A program made the translations under genes and the position numbers. From Octopus vulgaris (taxonomy: Eukaryota), in NCBI GenBank assembly GCA_951406725.2, contig OX597832.1:6014001-6078000 (forward strand): 64,000 bases of DNA. The letters run 5' to 3'. The notes beneath the pieces were generated by a model. It did no database searches. It was not told the DNA's origin and was given only the letters and a program-made list of their open reading frames with translations. Positions 13,953 through 61,600 of this stretch are shown here, piece after piece (positions within the stretch are counted from its first letter, which is position 1; every line of letters begins with the position of its first letter).

Positions 13953-16900
13953 AATCTGGAAGACTTGTAATTGTTTGAAATAAATTTATTTACATATATA
14001 CCAAACTAGTTTCAACTATATTTTTGTTTATCAATGGTAAAAATTTAGGATTATGAATTAGAAAAACATTTTTTAAAATTTCAATGTTAACAAAATAAAA
14101 TGTTCATAACAGACAAATTTAGAATTATGAATTAGAAAAACGTGTTCAAAAATTTCGTTGTTGACAAGTTTAAATGTTCACAACAGTCAATAATTTTAAA
14201 ACTGTGCATCAGTTTGTTTGAATGTACAAAGCTCATTAGTGTTAGTAGTGATGGACAAGAAATGAATATCATCAAAGTTTCGGTCATGCTTAGTTAAGAG
14301 GGAAAAAACAAGGGAAGAATGAAGATAGTAAGACATACGAGAGATAGTTCAACTCAACTTCTTATATTCTCCCCAGAAAGCTACAAATTAAAGCCATCCC
14401 CAATGAACCAGCAAAACAGAGAGAACTTAAAGGAAAAGTGATTCTGGAGAACTTCAAAATGGAGACAGAACTCCCGAAACTCAGCTCAATCCGACCAAGG
14501 AAAGTTCACTTCAATTGATGAAGAAATGAAGGTTGAAATCGCGAAAAAAAGCTCAAGGGGAATTTTTTGATAATACCATTCTACTCTGGAGAAAGAACTA
14601 TGAAAACGAGGAAATAATCTCACTTCAAAGATGGGAAAAAAACAACGATTGGTTCAATCACCATGAGGAAAAATTCAAGGAGGAATACCAATCTGATAAC
14701 CCTTTCTTGAAAACAACTAAAAATTATGAATTCCATATGACCGGAAGAAAGTCACTACCGGAACAATACCAGAATGCCCATCCAGAACCAAGAATAACCA
14801 ATACCCTCTCCGGGGTTCTAAATACTCATCAAAGACACAAAATGGGAAATTCCATTGCACCCTTCCCCTCAAGACAAAACACCCCCACTCAAAGATACAG
14901 AAACCCATCTCTCCTCAAGAACCCTCCACGTCTCAGACGTAACATCATCGTAAATAACTCTTTCGGACAGATCTATAAGAGAAATAAGAACTCTTCACGT
15001 CCGAGACACATTTCACATAAAGAAGACTTCGAACAGGACTAAAGAATTAGTAGTAACTACTCCCGCTCGAAACATTTCTTCCACAATAACCACTTGATCC
15101 AAACAGGATATAACCATTACGACAACCCCACTCAGAGCCGACCGCAACGGAGAACACACAATAGACCAAGGGTCAGCGGAAGGACAATCAACAGGAACAC
15201 TAACTTTTTACATCAAAGCCCAAGGAACCATTTTTTAGACAGACTGGGCCAAAACCGGGACACTTGATAACACCAAAGAAATGTGAGATCCCGAAGATGA
15301 TAAATCTCTAACATAAAACCTTTTCAAACCAGCAACTCGAAATTCTCGCAAAGGGAATGAAGTTCACCCCAACACCACAAAGGTCGAACGTAAATGATAC
15401 ACAAAATGATTTTCAGGAATTCTGCAGAAAACTTCGCTGGATAAAGAAAATAATGAGCAATCAATACTTCACAATAAAAGTTGACGAGTCCGACAAAAGG
15501 AAGAAACCAAACTCTGGATAACTTTTGTGATTTAGCTTTCAATTACCCCTACAATTTACTCCCACCTCGAAATTTAAAACAAACACTAGTCGAGAAGAAT
15601 GGGAAATCATTAATAATCTCAAGGAGGATGACAACATAATTATAAAAGAAGCCGATAAATGGAGTGCTGTAGTAACCATAGACTCAGAAAAATACATAAA
15701 CACTAACCTAATCCTCCTTCAGGACAATACCTACTAAGAAAATATCAACAACTACAGTCAATCCAAGATGATGATATAACTTTCAACCCTTATCCACCAG
15801 TTCCAACAAAGTTTAGCGGAAAAGGAGAGAGATTACATGACTAGATTTGACTGCAAAACCAGCAACTTTTATGGACTTCCCAAAATCCACAAAAGTGAAG
15901 CCATAAATGAAACCTGCAACAAATCAACTTCTGTAGTCATAAATATTCCACACCCGAGAATTCTCAAAATGAGACCAATTGTGGCCGGTCCCTCGTGTGA
16001 GACACACTGACTCAGTAACTTTATTGACGTTCTCCTTAAATTTATTCCCCAGCATATACCGAGCTTTATAAGGGATGAACTATCTCCCGAACAAAACCAG
16101 CAAGGACTCCCTTCTGGTTCCTTTCGATGTAGTGAACCTCTACACCTCGATTTCTCACGAATACGGAATAATAGCCATACAATACTGGCTGGAAAAATTC
16201 CCAAATGACATTCCTGACCGAATCGTTGAAGGAATAGAATTCATCCTACCGAACAACTTCTTCAACGAGAACATTTAGAGACAAAAATCAGGCACGGCGA
16301 TGGGAACAAGGGTAGCCCCTACTTTTGCCAACCTTGTCATGGTATACTTGGAAGTCCAAATAGACTGAAATTTGGAAACAACTTCCAAAAATACTGGAAA
16401 CGTTACCTGGATGACTGTTTCATTTTGTGGCCACTTAACCTTGAACAACTCTCAAAATTTAAAAACTTAATCAACAGCATTAACCACAGTATCCAGTTCA
16501 CAATGGAATACAGCCACAAACAACTAACCTTCTTGAACATCTTAATCATAAAAAGAGATATTGAAATTGAAGCTATCCTCTTCAAAACAACGGACACAAA
16601 ACAATATCTTCAATTTTCCTCCTGCCACCCAAAACATACTAAAATGAATATACCGTTTAACTTAGCAAGAAGAATTTGCACGATTGCATCAAATCCCGAA
16701 ACCCGAGAAAAGCGACTCCAAGAACTTAAAAACACATTACTAGATAGAAAATACTCGGCCAGTCTAATCTAAACGGAATAGAACGTGCAAAAATGATAGA
16801 CATCCAACAGTTACGGAAAACAAGAAAACACCATGACACACTTAAAACTTTATCTTACGTATCCACATACAATCCGAGGAACAGGGAAGCATACAACATT

Positions 16901-17920
16901 ATCCACCAAAACACACCCACACTTTATGAAGGACCTGCGAATGAAAAAGGCACTGGAAACATATAAAGAAAACTGCAATCCTTAAAACAGTTACTCACCA
17001 GCGCCAAATTATCCACCAAAAATACAATCCCACTTGTCAAAAAGTACAACCGCCCTAACTGTGGAACTTGCATCTTCCTCTTCGAGGGCTCAACATACAA
17101 AGTTAAGTCAGATCAAACTTTTACTTCCCCTGTGGTTCGAAGAACGTAATCAATGTTCTCAAATGTGGAGAGTGTGGTGGAGACTACATAGGTCAAACTA
17201 ATTTAACCTTGAGGGATAGACTAACGGTGCACAGGCAACAAAGCCGGGACCCCACGACTAGGAAAATCCCCATAAGCAAACATCTAGACCAATGCCCTGC
17301 AAACATAAGTCAGAAATACCAAATCTTCCCTCTCTATCAATGCACCGGAAACACTTCAACCCAATTCCGTTTAAATAAGGAAAGCATACTCATTAAAAAA
17401 ATATAAACCACAGCTGAATATCCTTTAGAAAGAAGAAAAAAGGAAAAAAAGAGAAAAAAGGAAAAAAAAGACTCAATATCTCCACAAACGACTGATGACA
17501 GTTCCCCACAGAGAAGCCAACCAGGCAGAACGACAAACTTGACTACCGGAAAAACAAGACGTCATCAGTACTTTAAAAAATCAAAAATCAGATCCGCTCG
17601 CACAAAAAATTATAAATAGACCGGATTCCAAAAAACACCGTTACAAGCGAAAATCCTTTGATTTTTTCCCTCTTAACTCAGTATGATTGAAACTTTGATG
17701 ATATTCTACTAACACTAATGAACTTTGTACATTCAAACAAATTGATGCACAGTTTTAATATTATTGACTGTTATGAACTTGTCAACATTGAAATTTTTTA
17801 ACATGTATTTCTAATTCTAAATTCTAAATTTTTACCATTGCTAAACAAAAAATATAGTTGAAACTAGTTTAGTATATATGTAAATAAATTTATTTTAAAC
17901 AATTACATGTCTTCCAGATT
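13953..17920 (+). mobile_element. Decayed Penelope-like element (RT plus GIY-YIG) with inverted terminal pLTR repeats
   Basis: Motifs FYGLPKIHK, MRPIVAG, FDVVNLYTSI, GTAMGTRVAPTFANL, RYLDDCF and CGECGGDYIGQT. 13953-14248 is the reverse complement of 17706-17920. Confidence 0.9.
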
Positions 17921-32721: not shown

Positions 32722-33156
32722 GGATCTATTCGGTTTGACCGGCAGTTTTTCTAGTGGTGTCATATGAAATTGTCACCCATAATTATGACCCTAGTATCGA
32801 TCTATTGCATTTCAATCTGTTTTAGGGTTAGGGTTAGTTAGGGTTAGGGTTAGGGTTAGGGGTAAGAGGAAGGGTATCTTTTTTTCTTCACAAATGTAAA
32901 GAAACCCAATCTGTTTCTTAAACGAGGAACATATTCATACGGCACAGAATGTTTTTTACCTCAATAGACGCCAGTGATTGGTTGAAATTGCAGAAATTGA
33001 AGAAAAAAAACAAATATCTTACAAACTATAGAATTTTCTCAATAAAGCCAAGAGAAAAAGATGTTTTATAAACACATTCTATCAGTATACGAAGTTAAAA
33101 ATTTTTTAGTTACCTGGAAATTATGTTAAAAACTGCCGTTCAAACCGAAAAGATCC
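32722..33156. mobile_element. Non-autonomous DNA transposon (GG-ended TIRs, 8-bp TSD; Merlin-like) carrying (TTAGGG)n
   Basis: TIRs GGATCTATTCGGTTTGACCGGCAGTTTTT / AAAAACTGCCGTTCAAACCGAAAAGATCC. TSD AATTCCTT at 32714-32721 and 33157-33164. Confidence 0.85.
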
Positions 33157-41026: not shown

Positions 41027-41487
41027 CATGGCAGTGTCATGTAAAAGTGCCCATGCGATGCCACATAAAAGTAGTCGTACAGTAACACATAAAAGTGCCT
41101 GTGTCATGTCACATAAAAGCACCCATTCAATGCCACATAAAAGTGCCCATGTGGTGCCACATAAAAGTACCCATGTGGTGCCACATAAAAGTTCCCATGC
41201 AGTGCCACGTAAAAGTGCCCATGTGGTGCCACATAAAAGTGCCCATGTGGTGCCACATAAAAGTACCCATGTGGTGCCACATAAAAGTGCCCATGCAGTG
41301 CCATGTAAAAGTGCCCATGTGGTGCCACATAAAAGTGCCCATGTGGTGCCACATAAAAGTGCCCATGTGGTGCCACATAAAAGTGCCCATGTGGTGCCAC
41401 ATAAAAGTGCCCATGCAGTGCCATGTTAAAGTGCCTGTGTGGTGCCACATAAAAGCACCCACGCGGTGCCATATAAAAGCACCCAGC
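41027..41487 (+). repeat. 24-bp minisatellite (GTGCCACATAAAAGTGCCCATGTG, about 19 units) inside an RTE-tail SINE
   Basis: Visible tandem units, followed by the family tail AGGGCATCCAGCCGTAGAAAC...GCCAGCATGG. Confidence 0.9.
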
Positions 41488-50102: not shown

Positions 50103-50140
50103 TTGTTTTAATTCTGTATTTTTACTCTTTGCATGAATAA
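50103..50140 (-). CDS. TMEM256: TMEM256 homolog, coding exon 2 (38 nt; VIHAKSKNTELKQ)
   Basis: Acceptor TTTTTCCAG, donor GTGAGT. Phase 1 in and phase 0 out joins exons 1 and 3 in frame, and it occupies the position of the short second exon of TMEM256. Confidence 0.85.
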
Positions 50141-53260: not shown

Positions 53261-53300
<40 letters not shown>

Positions 53301-53411
53301 ATAGTTATCGCCATACTAATATGGCATTCTTATAAAAATAAGAAAACAAGTGGATGTATTCCACCGAAACTAGGTAAATAAAACCATCGAACAGAGATTG
53401 TCGGAAGCGAC

Positions 53412-53488
53412 ACCTACTGGCTGGCTACGCTGCATTGAAAAGGGGCAATACTCCGAAACGCGTCTGTAGCTGCCGGTCAAGTAGTGTG
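53412..53488 (+). ncRNA. Type I hammerhead ribozyme, U3-A8 core variant (copy 1)
   Basis: Stem I GCTGCA/TGTAGC, core TTGAAAA, stem II GGGG-CAATA-CTCC, GAAA, palindromic stem III ACGCGT, GUC cleavage triplet (cut after 53464). Stem I extends with TGGCTGGC/GCCGGTCA. Confidence 0.85.
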
Positions 53489-53773
53489 GAGCGACTGACC
53501 TCCCTTGTTCGAAGGTTATATGGATACAGTTTGTGTATCAAATAGCTAACTTAAGGCGATGGCCTCATGGAGCTAATAAGCAGACAGCTTTTTTCTTATT
53601 TTTATAAGAATGCCATATTAGTATGGCGATAACTATTATTTTCCGGGAACGCTGCCGCTGTTCTCTTTTAGAGAGACTTAGTAATTTTAATATTTCTATT
53701 ATTGAAAACAAGTGGATGTATTCCACCGAAACTAGGTAAATAAAACCATCGAACAGAGATTGTCGGAAGCGAC

Positions 53774-53850
53774 ACCTACTGGCTGGCTACGCTGCATTGA
53801 AAAGGGGCAATACTCCGAAACGCGTCTGTAGCTGCCGGTCAAGTAGTGTG
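53774..53850 (+). ncRNA. Type I hammerhead ribozyme, U3-A8 core variant (copy 2)
   Basis: Identical core to copy 1; predicted cut after 53826. Confidence 0.85.
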
Positions 53851-54135
53851 GAGCAACTGACCTCCCTTGTTCGAAGGTTATATGGATACAGTTTGTGTAT
53901 CAAATAGCTAACTTAAGGCGATGGCCTCATGGAGCTAATAAGCGGACAGCTTTTTTCTTATTTTTATAAGAATGCCATATTAGTATGGCGATAACTATTA
54001 TTTTCCGGGAACGCTGCCGCTGTTCTCTTTTAGAGAGACTTAGTAATTTTAATATTTCTATTATTGAAAACAAGTGGATGTATTCCACCGAAACTAGGTA
54101 AATAAAACCATCGAACAGAGATTGTCGGAAGCAAC

Positions 54136-54212
54136 ACCTACTGGCTGGCTACGCTGCATTGAAAAGGGGCAATACTCCGAAACGCGTCTGTAGCTGCCGG
54201 TCAAGTAGTGTG
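54136..54212 (+). ncRNA. Type I hammerhead ribozyme, U3-A8 core variant (copy 3)
   Basis: Identical core to copy 1; predicted cut after 54188. Confidence 0.85.
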
Positions 54213-54423
54213 GAACGACTGACCTCCCTTGTTCGAAGGTTATATGGATACAGTTTGTGTATCAAATAGCTAACTTAAGGCGATGGCCTCATGGAGCTAA
54301 TAAGCGGACAGCTTTTTTCTTATTTTTATAAGAATGCCATATTAGTATGGCGATAACTATTATTTTCCGGGAACGCTGCCGCTGTTCTCTTTTAGAGAGA
54401 CTTAGTAATTTTAATATTTCTAT

Positions 54424-54472
<49 letters not shown>

Positions 54473-56603: not shown

Positions 56604-56778
56604 CATGTGCCCCGATAGCCGCCATCCCGACAGCTAAAGCACCAGAGATGCCGGCCAACCGAACAAAATTAGTTCCAGGAGCATTTGATAACATTACTTC
56701 TTTCACCTGTTCAGCAACAACACTCTGTTTGGGAAGCAGCGAAGCGACTGCATTACTAATTCCGTAAAGCATATCCAT
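56604..56778 (-). CDS. TMEM256: TMEM256 homolog, coding exon 1 (MDMLYGIS...FVRLAGISGALAVGMAAIGAH)
   Basis: ATG at 56778. The translation matches the TMEM256/DUF423 N-terminal motif (F.RL..LSGA.A.G...YGAH). Ends at a phase-1 donor, G|GTAAGT, at 56603. Confidence 0.93.
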
Positions 56779-58679: not shown

Positions 58680-61600
58680 GGAGAGAGAGAGAGAGAGCGA
58701 GAAAGAAGGGGTATCCCTCTTCCTATTCATTCATTTATTTAGTCCCTTACCATTGTATTGGAATGGGTTTAAACCGGCCAAATCCGGCCCAATATATTCT
58801 ATATGTTTTATATTCAAACTGGCGATATCTAGCCTCTCACTCCTAACCTACAATGCCATTCTGAAAATAAACAATCACATATTTAGTCCTTTACCATTGT
58901 ATTGGAATGGGTTTAAGGATGGTGGCCTCTTCAAAAAAATAAAAACAGGTGCAATTTGGTCATCACTGAAAATCATTTTGCTTTCTTTCCCTCTTCCCTT
59001 CACCTTTTTTCCTCTTTCTTTCTTTTTCTCCTCTTTGGGTTGTATTTAGAATACAAAATGTTCTCTCTCCTCTTCCAAACATTCAATTTTGGAGGGAATT
59101 TTTTGATAAAATGTAGTCTGTAAAAGGGGAAAATTTAGAATTTTCTGTCACTGCATATTTCCAGATGCGCTTAATGGAATCTTCCGTTATTCCTCTTATC
59201 GGATATGTTGCCTGTGGATTCTTGCATAATGGCAGAGGGAATTATTTGTTTCACCAATGTAATTTTCTTTGCAGTTTGGACAGGTAATGCAGTATATGAG
59301 GTTTTGCATTTTGCAGTTCATACCTGCATTTATTTTGGAAAGGGATCTGCTCTTGAATTCCATGTGAGAACCACTTCCAAGTGTTTGAAGTCGTTGATGT
59401 TGTTGCATGTTCCACATCTCCTATCTCCACATTCTTTTACTAAGAATTATGATTCATTCTCTGATTTGAATTCTGCCCTTGTGAGGTGTGTTTTAAGATT
59501 TTTTGGTTGGCATCTGCAATTCCGTAAGGTGTTTTTTTAATCAGATTTTTCATTTTGGAGTTTTGTAGGAGTATTGGTAAGTTCAATTTTATAGTGTGAA
59601 ACATGTTGGTTATTCCAGAACTGTGTGTGTTAACGAATGGAATTATGTTTTCATTAGCCTTTTCCTTAGGTGCCTGTAGTTGGTGATGTTTAGTTTCATC
59701 ACCTTTTTAATTCCCTCATTAATTAATCCTTAGGGGTATTTCTGCATTGCGAGGAAGCCTTTGAGTTCATTGAGTCAGATTTCACATATTTTGGGGTCAG
59801 TCACTATAGCACAGATGAGTCTTGCCATGCTGTATAGGATGTTTCTTATTTCTTTACCACCCACAAGAGGCTAAACACAGGACAGACAAACGGATTAAGT
59901 CGATTATATCGACCCCAGTGCGTAACTAGTACTTATTTAATCGACCCCGAAAGGATGAAAGGCAAAGTCGACCTCGGCGGAATTTGAACTCAGAACGTAA
60001 CGGCGGATGAAATACGGCTACGCATTTCGCCGACGTGCTAACGTTTCTGACAGCTCACCGCCTTATAGGATGTTTCTTTTGATGTGTGATGGATGGCAAG
60101 AGTAGAAATTTGAATATTGGTGTGTGTCAGTTTTTTTGTAAAATATGTCTGTTGTAACTGTGGAGTTCTGTATTTTTATGTGGATATCGAGGAATGGTAG
60201 TTCATTGCAACAGGATTCTGTCATGAATTTGATGGATGAGTGAAGTGTGTTCAGTATATTGTTAAATATATTTAGATCTTCATTCAATTTGTCCCAGAAG
60301 ATGAAGCAATCATCAAGGAAGTGTTTCCATTTTTTAATGATATATTTCTTGTACTCCTGATCAAAAGTTTTTCCACTTCCTCATAAAGTTTTCTCCCAAG
60401 TATCCCATACCTAAGTTTGCATATGAGGGTGCAAACCGCATACTGATAGCCATGCCCTTTATCTGTTGGTTAGTTTTATTGTCGAATCTAAAGGTATTTT
60501 CTTCTAGTACTAGGTGTGTGGCCTTGGTGATGAAGTGAGTCTTGAAGCATTCATTTATCCATTCTCTCTGTTTCTCTACCCAATGTTTGATTGCTTCCAG
60601 GCCTAAAGTGTGAGGTATATCAGTGTAGAGATTGATAACATCAAAACTTTCGAGTATAGTGCCTTCTGCCTCAGTGGGAGGGATGTTTTAAATGGAATCT
60701 ATGCCATCCCGTACATAACTGGGTATTAGAGGGCACAAAAGTTTTAGGAGTATATCTAAAAAATGACTTTGTTGTTGCGTTGGTGCTTGAGGTCCAGCTT
60801 CCATGCTTTTTTCACCAATCAGGATATATGGGATATTTTATCATAAATCGTAGGTTGCGTCAGTTATGATAATGCTTATTATTCATATTGTAGTTCCTGT
60901 GTTGTCCCTATTTTATTTGTCTTTCTTCCCATGTATTCATCCATCTAGGGTACATATTATTACAGGTTGATGGTTGTCTATATGTTATTTGTCTTTCATG
61001 TTTTTCTTTTCCTTTGTATTTATCCATCTATGGTGTTTGAAATTATGGGTTGATGGTTGTCTTCTATATTTCATGTGTTGGCCATTTGCAGTGTTATGTA
61101 TTGTAGAATATGGGTTTCTAGTGAGTACTTGGGGTGAGATGGAGGTAATTTTTGTGTATGTTCTTGGGTAATTAGGGGTTTGATACCTTAATCCAGTTAT
61201 CCAGTTCCACAGGGGTTGGTGTCTATGTTTGTTTTCAATTTCATTGTATTTCTTTTTCTGTGGTTTCGTTTTCATAATGGATTTATCTCCTAGGTTTTTT
61301 CCATAGTTAATGAACCACTCTTGTTTTCCCCACATTTTTATGGCTTTTTCTTCTTCCTGCTTCTTTCTATAGTTTTTGCAGTTTTTCATGACATTGATTG
61401 TCACTCTGCTAAGCTATTTCAGCAAATATAACTGCATCAGTATTTTTTACTTTCTCTTTGTGTCTTATTTTTCATGATTTTATATTCTAAATATAACTCA
61501 GAGGAGAAAAAGAAAGAGGAAAAGAGAAAGAAAAGGGGAAGAGAAAAGGAAAGCAAAATGATTTTCAGTGATGACCAAACTGAACCTGTTTTTTTTTTTT

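Follow-up and report, generated by a model that had tools for sequence, protein, structure and literature searches.

Introduction

Non-LTR retrozymes are known in mussel, coral and axolotl (Cervera and de la Pena 2020, PMC7229834), and retrozymes have been described as non-autonomous derivatives of Penelope-like elements (PLEs) in the accessible text of a preprint (bioRxiv 10.64898/2026.07.22.740005). PLEs leave a signature of an inverted truncated arm, a tail at one end and a microsatellite target (Craig 2021, PMC8557442), in which the tail marks two start sites of the reverse transcriptase (RT) (Frangieh 2024, PMC11167929). Hammerhead ribozymes with natural covariation to a U3-A8 pair have been described, and such pairs are stated to be active in vitro (Perreault 2011, PMC3088659). 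About 1,300 U3-A8 motifs are reported in Schistosoma PLE hammerheads (Cervera 2014, PMC4209133), where a short stem III is given as typical of dimer-acting animal hammerheads. Finally, target-specific LINEs of the Tx1 clade include Tx1L in Tx1D, Keno in U2 snRNA and Tx1-Mar in Mariner-N4 (PMC4494074).

Here we describe a tandem array in a 64-kb stretch of the Octopus vulgaris genome (“the window” throughout). We are confident that this array is a single insertion of a young, non-coding, Penelope-dependent retroelement, a non-LTR retrozyme, and that this element also serves as the docking site of L1/Tx1-group LINEs at other loci. The array is thus a cephalopod addition to a known class. Like the animal retrozymes of PMC7229834, it consists of tandem, non-coding 150–450 bp units with a type I hammerhead, low GC and a stable monomer fold. 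Unlike them, the octopus family has a U3-A8 core and mapped PLE-type inverted arms and tail, and it is known here from DNA rather than RNA; the accessible text of that paper mentions neither octopus nor cephalopods. The preprint on PLE derivatives, in its accessible part, covers the same class with the same proposed partner. However, the link to PLEs in Xenopus is pLTR homology, whereas in octopus it is insertion structure, with no homologous PLE found.

Results

The tandem part of the array spans 53342-54426 with a period of 362, 3.0 copies and 99% identity (TRF), and its units differ at 2–4 positions. TRF and unit alignment place unit 1 (362 bp) at 53342..53703, unit 2 at 53704..54065 and unit 3 at 54066..54426, all on the plus strand. 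The third unit stops at position 361, the second of two 3' end sites, and the 60 nt between both sites (54367..54426, plus strand) form a PLE-type “tail” found at this end only. To the left, on the minus strand, lies an inverted, 5'-truncated arm of 52 bp (53295..53346) that corresponds to unit positions 250-301 and ends at the first 3' end site, ~298-301. The insertion therefore ends at 301 on the left and 361 on the right, fitting the two-site rule described below. It is flanked by the (TA)n target microsatellite on the left (53263..53295; sequence and TRF) and by (TA)n followed by (TG)n on the right (54424..54472; TRF).

This layout agrees with the original prediction of three near-identical 362-bp units with no meaningful open reading frame, the longest stop-free frame being 73 aa. 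That prediction ran the array from 53295 to 54426; the array is real, but its tandem part begins at 53342, and the inverted arm at 53295-53346 had been overlooked. The units, each with a type I hammerhead, fall within the 150–450 bp range of retrozymes, and GC is 42–44%, that is below 50%, in the 2-kb bins holding the array. An assembly artefact is excluded, since copies of the family are dispersed and contigs from three of the four public sequencing runs examined contain the head-to-tail joint. The runs X1-X20, which carry seven organism labels and of which none is listed as RNA, contain 69–89% of the unit’s words, with run X19 covering 13 of 28 bins; the unit may be common to close species. 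A short interstitial TTAGGG run lies elsewhere in the window (32822-32861).

Genome-wide, we found at least 184 unit matches in the best 40 of 1,102 candidates. With both alternatives allowed at positions 3 and 8, an exact hammerhead pattern had 897 matches (457+440) and none in controls. The family is dispersed and multicopy. Among the 100 matches listed, the core was U3-A8 in 99 and C3-A8 in one. The 95 full units among the best matches lie 0.17% from consensus outside three polymorphic sites, a set biased towards young copies, and choosing the first 40 loci as best query matches inflates both the apparent youth and the apparent uniformity of the family.

Insertion ends were surveyed in 97 loci, comprising 38 best matches, 23 unranked family-A loci and 36 loci from sister families B and C; end and arm counts omit L056 (which has no unit), L031 and the duplicates L067 and L071. 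Two arms were joined 5' to 5' in 69 of the 97. In 61 of these, one end lay at unit positions 290-303 and the other at 352-362, while in the remaining eight one end lay elsewhere; both ends fell at one site in none of the 69. At least one end was in (TA)n in 36/38 best matches, 22/23 unranked family-A loci and 21/36 loci of families B and C. An LTR-like layout was absent from the loci read. The family thus combines an inverted 5'-truncated arm, a one-end tail of ~60 nt and a microsatellite target, and this end structure upholds the proposal that a non-LTR retrozyme was moved by Penelope-type machinery. As far as the accessible texts on PLEs go (PMC11167929, PMC8557442), the two share two RT starts, a one-end tail, an inverted truncated arm and AT-rich or microsatellite targets. 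They differ in tail length (~60 nt in the octopus retrozyme vs. 30–40 in PLEs) and in the strict one-of-each rule, which holds in 61/61 octopus loci with both ends classifiable.

Arms were longer than one unit in 47 of 71 cases, and the longest seen reached 3.6 kb. At the three polymorphic sites, mixed loci numbered 2/35, 2/39 and 0/39, where shuffling expects 26.4, 17.0 and 24.3, and the two arms of a locus agreed in 16/16, 26/28 and 20/20 cases. Because units and arms share one haplotype, we infer a single-unit template read repeatedly by both strands, in line with what had been predicted; this template was probably a circle, the simplest form it could take. Among 11 rarer variants present in at least two units of a locus, four were in all units, five in all but one and two in a minority. 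The 5' breaks showed a weak excess at the cut site (unit 119-129; 8/107, against 2.6 and 5.8 per 11 nt in neighboring stretches), and a larger peak lay away from it (14 at 160-169). A 392-nt contig from run X2, guessed to be RNA, closes the 362-nt cycle, a result that fits a circle and a tandem equally since contigs cannot separate the two. Some arrays look as though they were duplicated later.

Two decayed PLE copies with frameshifts and stops lie in the window, one at 14530-17400 on the plus strand and one at ~59300-61400 on the minus strand. The best named match of a window PLE fragment was an Octopus protein, and Pfam searches on five window fragments gave no match. The family of the first window copy is old; its copies are 77–85% alike to the window copy, and their 3' ends are unlike the unit (20 loci). 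A role for these two PLEs in mobilizing the array is therefore not supported, as both are decayed and the tested family’s 3' ends do not resemble the unit. The PLE family joined to a retrozyme in L110 was likewise rejected as a partner for its dissimilar 3' ends (20 loci). A young family (L196-L225), recovered in a protein search that took the best 60 of 32,728 candidates, has dozens of intact frames of ~776 aa that are 98–100% alike. Upstream lies a long region rich in proline and asparagine, and on the 3' side mixed microsatellites form a long tract. The family’s linker zinc motif is as in Neptune (label from the accessible text of PMC8557442). It too was rejected as a partner: in 30 loci its 1.5-kb flanks had no similarity to the unit, and its 3' region extends beyond them. 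No autonomous PLE sharing sequence with the unit, pLTR homology included, was found in the 1.5-kb flanks of these three families. PLE pieces touch retrozymes in L065, L106, L107 and L110 and look like nested insertions. In two of these loci, the 5' break of a retrozyme arm directly adjoins a PLE coding fragment (L110:2265-4250 and L107:5837-6144), which may reflect nested insertion or a template switch.

Each unit in the window carries one type I hammerhead on the plus strand, at 53429..53470 (U3-A8 core at 53435-53441), 53791..53832 and 54153..54194. The UUGAAAA cores begin at 53435, 53797 and 54159, and the GUC triplets end at 53464, 53826 and 54188, after which cleavage is predicted. All parts of the motif that had been predicted for each unit are present: stem I, stem II with one G-U pair, GAAA, the palindrome ACGCGU and GUC. 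No further motif of this kind was found on either strand of the window. A search of the window with Rfam gave no hammerhead match at E<=1, and standard models therefore miss the U3-A8 hammerhead. The canonical CUGANGA core had no match in the family-A stem II context.

Five collinear sister subfamilies were found, 84, 77, 51, 55 and 53% identical to the window unit. Across 19 sequences, 96.2% of cells are paired in stems I and II and the 3-8 pair, a value reached by 0/500 shuffles and compared with 35–47% in slid controls; these sequences were hand-picked and related, and kinship inflates such scores. The 3-8 pair was C-G in nine, U-A in seven, U-G in three and unpaired in none, so the suggested compensatory change at this pair stands. 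Covarying stems I and II, the 3-8 pair, GAAA and an NUH cut site together place the motif in type I. In families A–C, 159 of 175 motifs have a palindromic stem III, in four different sequences, as do most of the copies read from D, E and F. Within a monomer stem III would have only 2 bp, and the monomer is in this respect not stable; between two copies it has 6 bp (cofold). The monomer fold has z = -4.7. The palindrome has been kept despite sequence change, as the predicted dimeric stem III would require. Because stems, 3-8 pair and palindrome are all kept across subfamilies, we conclude that the active lineages have been under selection for a dimer-type hammerhead, whereas individual copies in the genome drift. 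In genomic copies, core positions mutate no less than the rest (8/2295 vs. 118/50368).

The U3-A8 core had originally been taken as novel, which the papers of 2011 and 2014 (PMC3088659, PMC4209133) contradict. Those hammerheads likewise show natural U3-A8 covariation in the text available. What differs in octopus is that a single genome has C-G, U-G and U-A side by side in one homologous superfamily, a natural series that offers a ready set for testing the tolerance of the hammerhead core. The U3-G8 wobble of subfamily F (L257, L258, L280, L286) is an intermediate between C-G and U-A. Hammerheads of subfamily D have a fixed U4C core change with C3-G8 (L256, L264, L266, L269-L275, L278); a U4C viroid variant is mentioned in the accessible text of PMC3088659.

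The host gene lies on the minus strand, with its first coding exon, of the DUF423 family, at 56604..56778 (the exon ends at 56604). The better of two frame-restoring candidates for exon 2 is at 50103..50140 (minus strand). This gene, which we take to be TMEM256, would hold the array in intron 1, so the predicted location in the first intron stands on this exon assignment. The hammerhead is antisense to the intron because the gene is on the minus strand. A link to the host gene is not supported, the array being antisense and one copy among hundreds. Within the unit, two sequences resembling a splice donor and acceptor were unsupported as splice sites. The last intron of the gene contains a 24-bp minisatellite of 18 copies (41042-41479).

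The original prediction also overlooked a LINE that targets this retrozyme. Its target sites, at unit positions 62-78, are empty in all three window units: 53403..53419 in unit 1, where it is the 5' strand of extended helix I, 53765..53781 in unit 2 and 54127..54143 in unit 3, with one substitution (all on the plus strand). An intact 5.3-kb LINE lies inside a retrozyme array at L031:1491-6836; its ORF1 has a zinc knuckle and its ORF2 has an APE endonuclease, RT and a zinc finger. Its closest solved relative is L1 ORF2p, and the docking LINEs have L1-group affinity, with the Tx1 label applied by analogy.

A search with the 3' end of this LINE scored 40 of 478 candidates, and 30 loci were read. 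All 20 copies of at least 98.9% identity among them end at unit 61-63 in sense; these represent 16 separate places, five copies being in one cluster. Seventeen run on into the hammerhead, and three meet a 17-bp copy of the target followed by a further LINE. The young LINE is represented by L031, L166-L184 and L186, with a tandem cluster at G000:C2:73.04-73.07 Mb. None of 10 more distant loci was at the retrozyme site, and several end on a similar short motif. The end of one relative, 92% identical, coincides exactly with the 5' end of a U1 snRNA gene (L192:1890-2053), possibly marking a U1-targeting lineage. On the 5' side, retrozyme sequence was in register at all 14 loci checked: 11 full-length copies join exactly after unit 78, giving a 17-bp duplication, and three truncated copies join at unit 78, 58 and ~6. 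Rare host variants are common to both LINE flanks in 7 of 12 pairs. Because the hosts are differently built and of different haplotypes and the flanks share rare variants, these insertions were independent. At L234:380-442, one arm of an insertion has a 63-bp LINE 3' fragment at the target, while the other arm of that insertion has a full LINE there.

A second LINE lineage, with ~30% identity in ORF1, consists largely of ORF1-only elements of 1.7–2.1 kb. Scoring 40 of 276 candidates placed 33/40 loci at the site, across subfamilies ~50% alike. Of the 40, 25 end just ahead of a hammerhead (10 in B/C, 10 in D, three in E, two in F), eight end on a target copy followed by another element, and seven on neither. 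These ORF1-only derivatives dock at the homologous site in subfamilies B–F, often in tandem (L108, L109/L110, L241-L278, L279-L282). Measured from the conserved motif at the LINE end, the hammerhead core is 32–37 nt away and the cut 64–71 nt, given as ranges alone because the rows contained duplicates. A decayed LINE 88% identical to the L031 element lies at an F-type site, where the target is ~50% alike to that of A. Against a threshold of >20% of flanks of one type for target specificity, the two lineages reach 20/20 and 33/40. LINEs of the L1/Tx1 group thus dock in sense just ahead of the hammerhead.

Discussion

Why LINEs dock at this position can be read in more than one way. We lean, with some reserve, towards ordinary endonuclease-set targeting of a harmless multicopy site, inherited along with the target, without any contribution from the ribozyme. 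In Tx1-clade LINEs it is mainly the endonuclease that directs insertion into other transposons and small RNA genes (PMC4494074, accessible text). In relatives of the young LINE, the end falls on a loose motif away from any hammerhead, once at the U1 snRNA 5' end. Moreover, the six target subfamilies are homologous, so docking position may be kept by descent, and 7/40 second-lineage ends have no hammerhead. Yet several observations sit poorly with the endonuclease acting alone. LINEs 88% alike in DNA use targets ~50% alike, and their endonuclease region is slightly more diverged than their RT (88.0% vs. 91.0% identity). In addition, spacing to the core stays at 32–37 nt, the LINE 3' ends have no poly(A) tail and full-length 5' junctions are exact.

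It is possible, if rather doubtful, that the LINE clade borrows its target’s ribozyme to trim a target-matching 3' tail, making targeting partly RNA-guided. A LINE ahead of the hammerhead would be co-transcribed with the retrozyme. The 17-bp duplication rebuilds the 5' strand of extended helix I, and the downstream hammerhead therefore stays whole; it would then trim read-through RNA ~60–70 nt past the LINE end. The resulting target-matching tail could anneal to nicked DNA for precise, poly(A)-free priming, much as downstream target sequence raises R2Ol insertion by annealing (PMC6795142, accessible text). Because the tail would be renewed from the parent copy’s target, the clade could follow or switch between targets ~50% alike. 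The absence of poly(A), the exact 5' junctions and the quick change of target fit this mechanism, which would form a three-tier chain of PLE, retrozyme circle and LINE. If the ribozyme does define the LINE 3' end, insertion specificity would be set in a manner not reported before. Such a mechanism would bear on tools for site-specific gene insertion and could be tested with the intact element.

For the retrozyme itself, we propose that hammerheads, paired as dimers via the palindromic stem III, cut multimeric plus-strand RNA, and that the 362-nt monomer then circularizes. A PLE RT/GIY-YIG protein supplied in trans would nick both strands of a (TA)n tract, and its RT would prime twice on the same RNA, 60 nt apart, and run round the unit to produce tandem arms. 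Circularization is reasonably likely, and we would narrowly expect a dimer of the 362-nt unit to cleave in vitro. The same PLE-dependent element could instead be copied from a linear multi-unit read-through RNA followed by later unequal crossing-over, with no circle needed and the hammerhead weak or dispensable. In the accessible text on an Anolis PLE, hammerhead mutants did not lower insertion in vitro and no reads ended at the hammerhead cut site (PMC11167929). Similarly, only one of nine Xenopus retrozyme dimers was cleaved in vitro, the other eight staying uncleaved (bioRxiv 10.64898/2026.07.22.740005, accessible part), and alternating variants in L032 and L057 resemble later duplication. 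However, some rare variants are fixed throughout a locus and in both of its arms, which requires a bottleneck of one unit, and the stems, 3-8 pair and palindrome are kept across subfamilies ~50% alike. We consider the linear template improbable on balance. For the circular template, the one-of-each end rule and the single haplotype give genome-scale support to the idea that priming is paired on a single circular RNA, a point not yet settled for PLE transposition.

The LINE might also have inserted once and then spread as cargo of the PLE machinery. In L172 an inverted arm is joined inside a truncated LINE, and in L031 a unit of foreign haplotype follows the LINE and stops at the first 3' end site; these two may be cargo events. 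Still, retrozyme sequence lies in register upstream at every one of the 14 loci checked, and truncated copies use the same site. The 11 full 5.3-kb copies sit in host insertions of different build, the two sides of the LINE have rare host variants in common (7/12 pairs), and retrozyme arms reach at most 3.6 kb among those seen. Such hitch-hiking is largely refuted for most LINE copies and, as a general account, very unlikely. Despite its place in the apparent first intron, that the array regulates or processes the host gene is scarcely credible for a very young antisense insertion that is one of hundreds of copies in microsatellites.

The pairing of LINE and retrozyme is the new part of these results, as the retrozyme class and U3-A8 cores were already known. 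Young intact LINEs docking ahead of a hammerhead amount to a parasite of a parasite. We found no report of a LINE docking on a ribozyme-bearing retroelement in the open-access literature searched. The closest relatives in behavior are the Tx1-clade LINEs (PMC4494074), which in the accessible text likewise have an APE endonuclease and RT, insert at one set position of a different repeat or a small RNA gene, re-insert in tandem and have non-autonomous derivatives. The octopus target differs in being a ribozyme-bearing retroelement, with the LINE at a fixed distance from the core. R2 in 28S rDNA, as the available text describes it (PMC6795142), is alike in that its target is co-transcribed and downstream target RNA aids insertion by annealing. 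R2 carries its own HDV-like ribozyme at its 5' end, whereas in octopus the ribozyme is part of the target, on the 3' side of the LINE.
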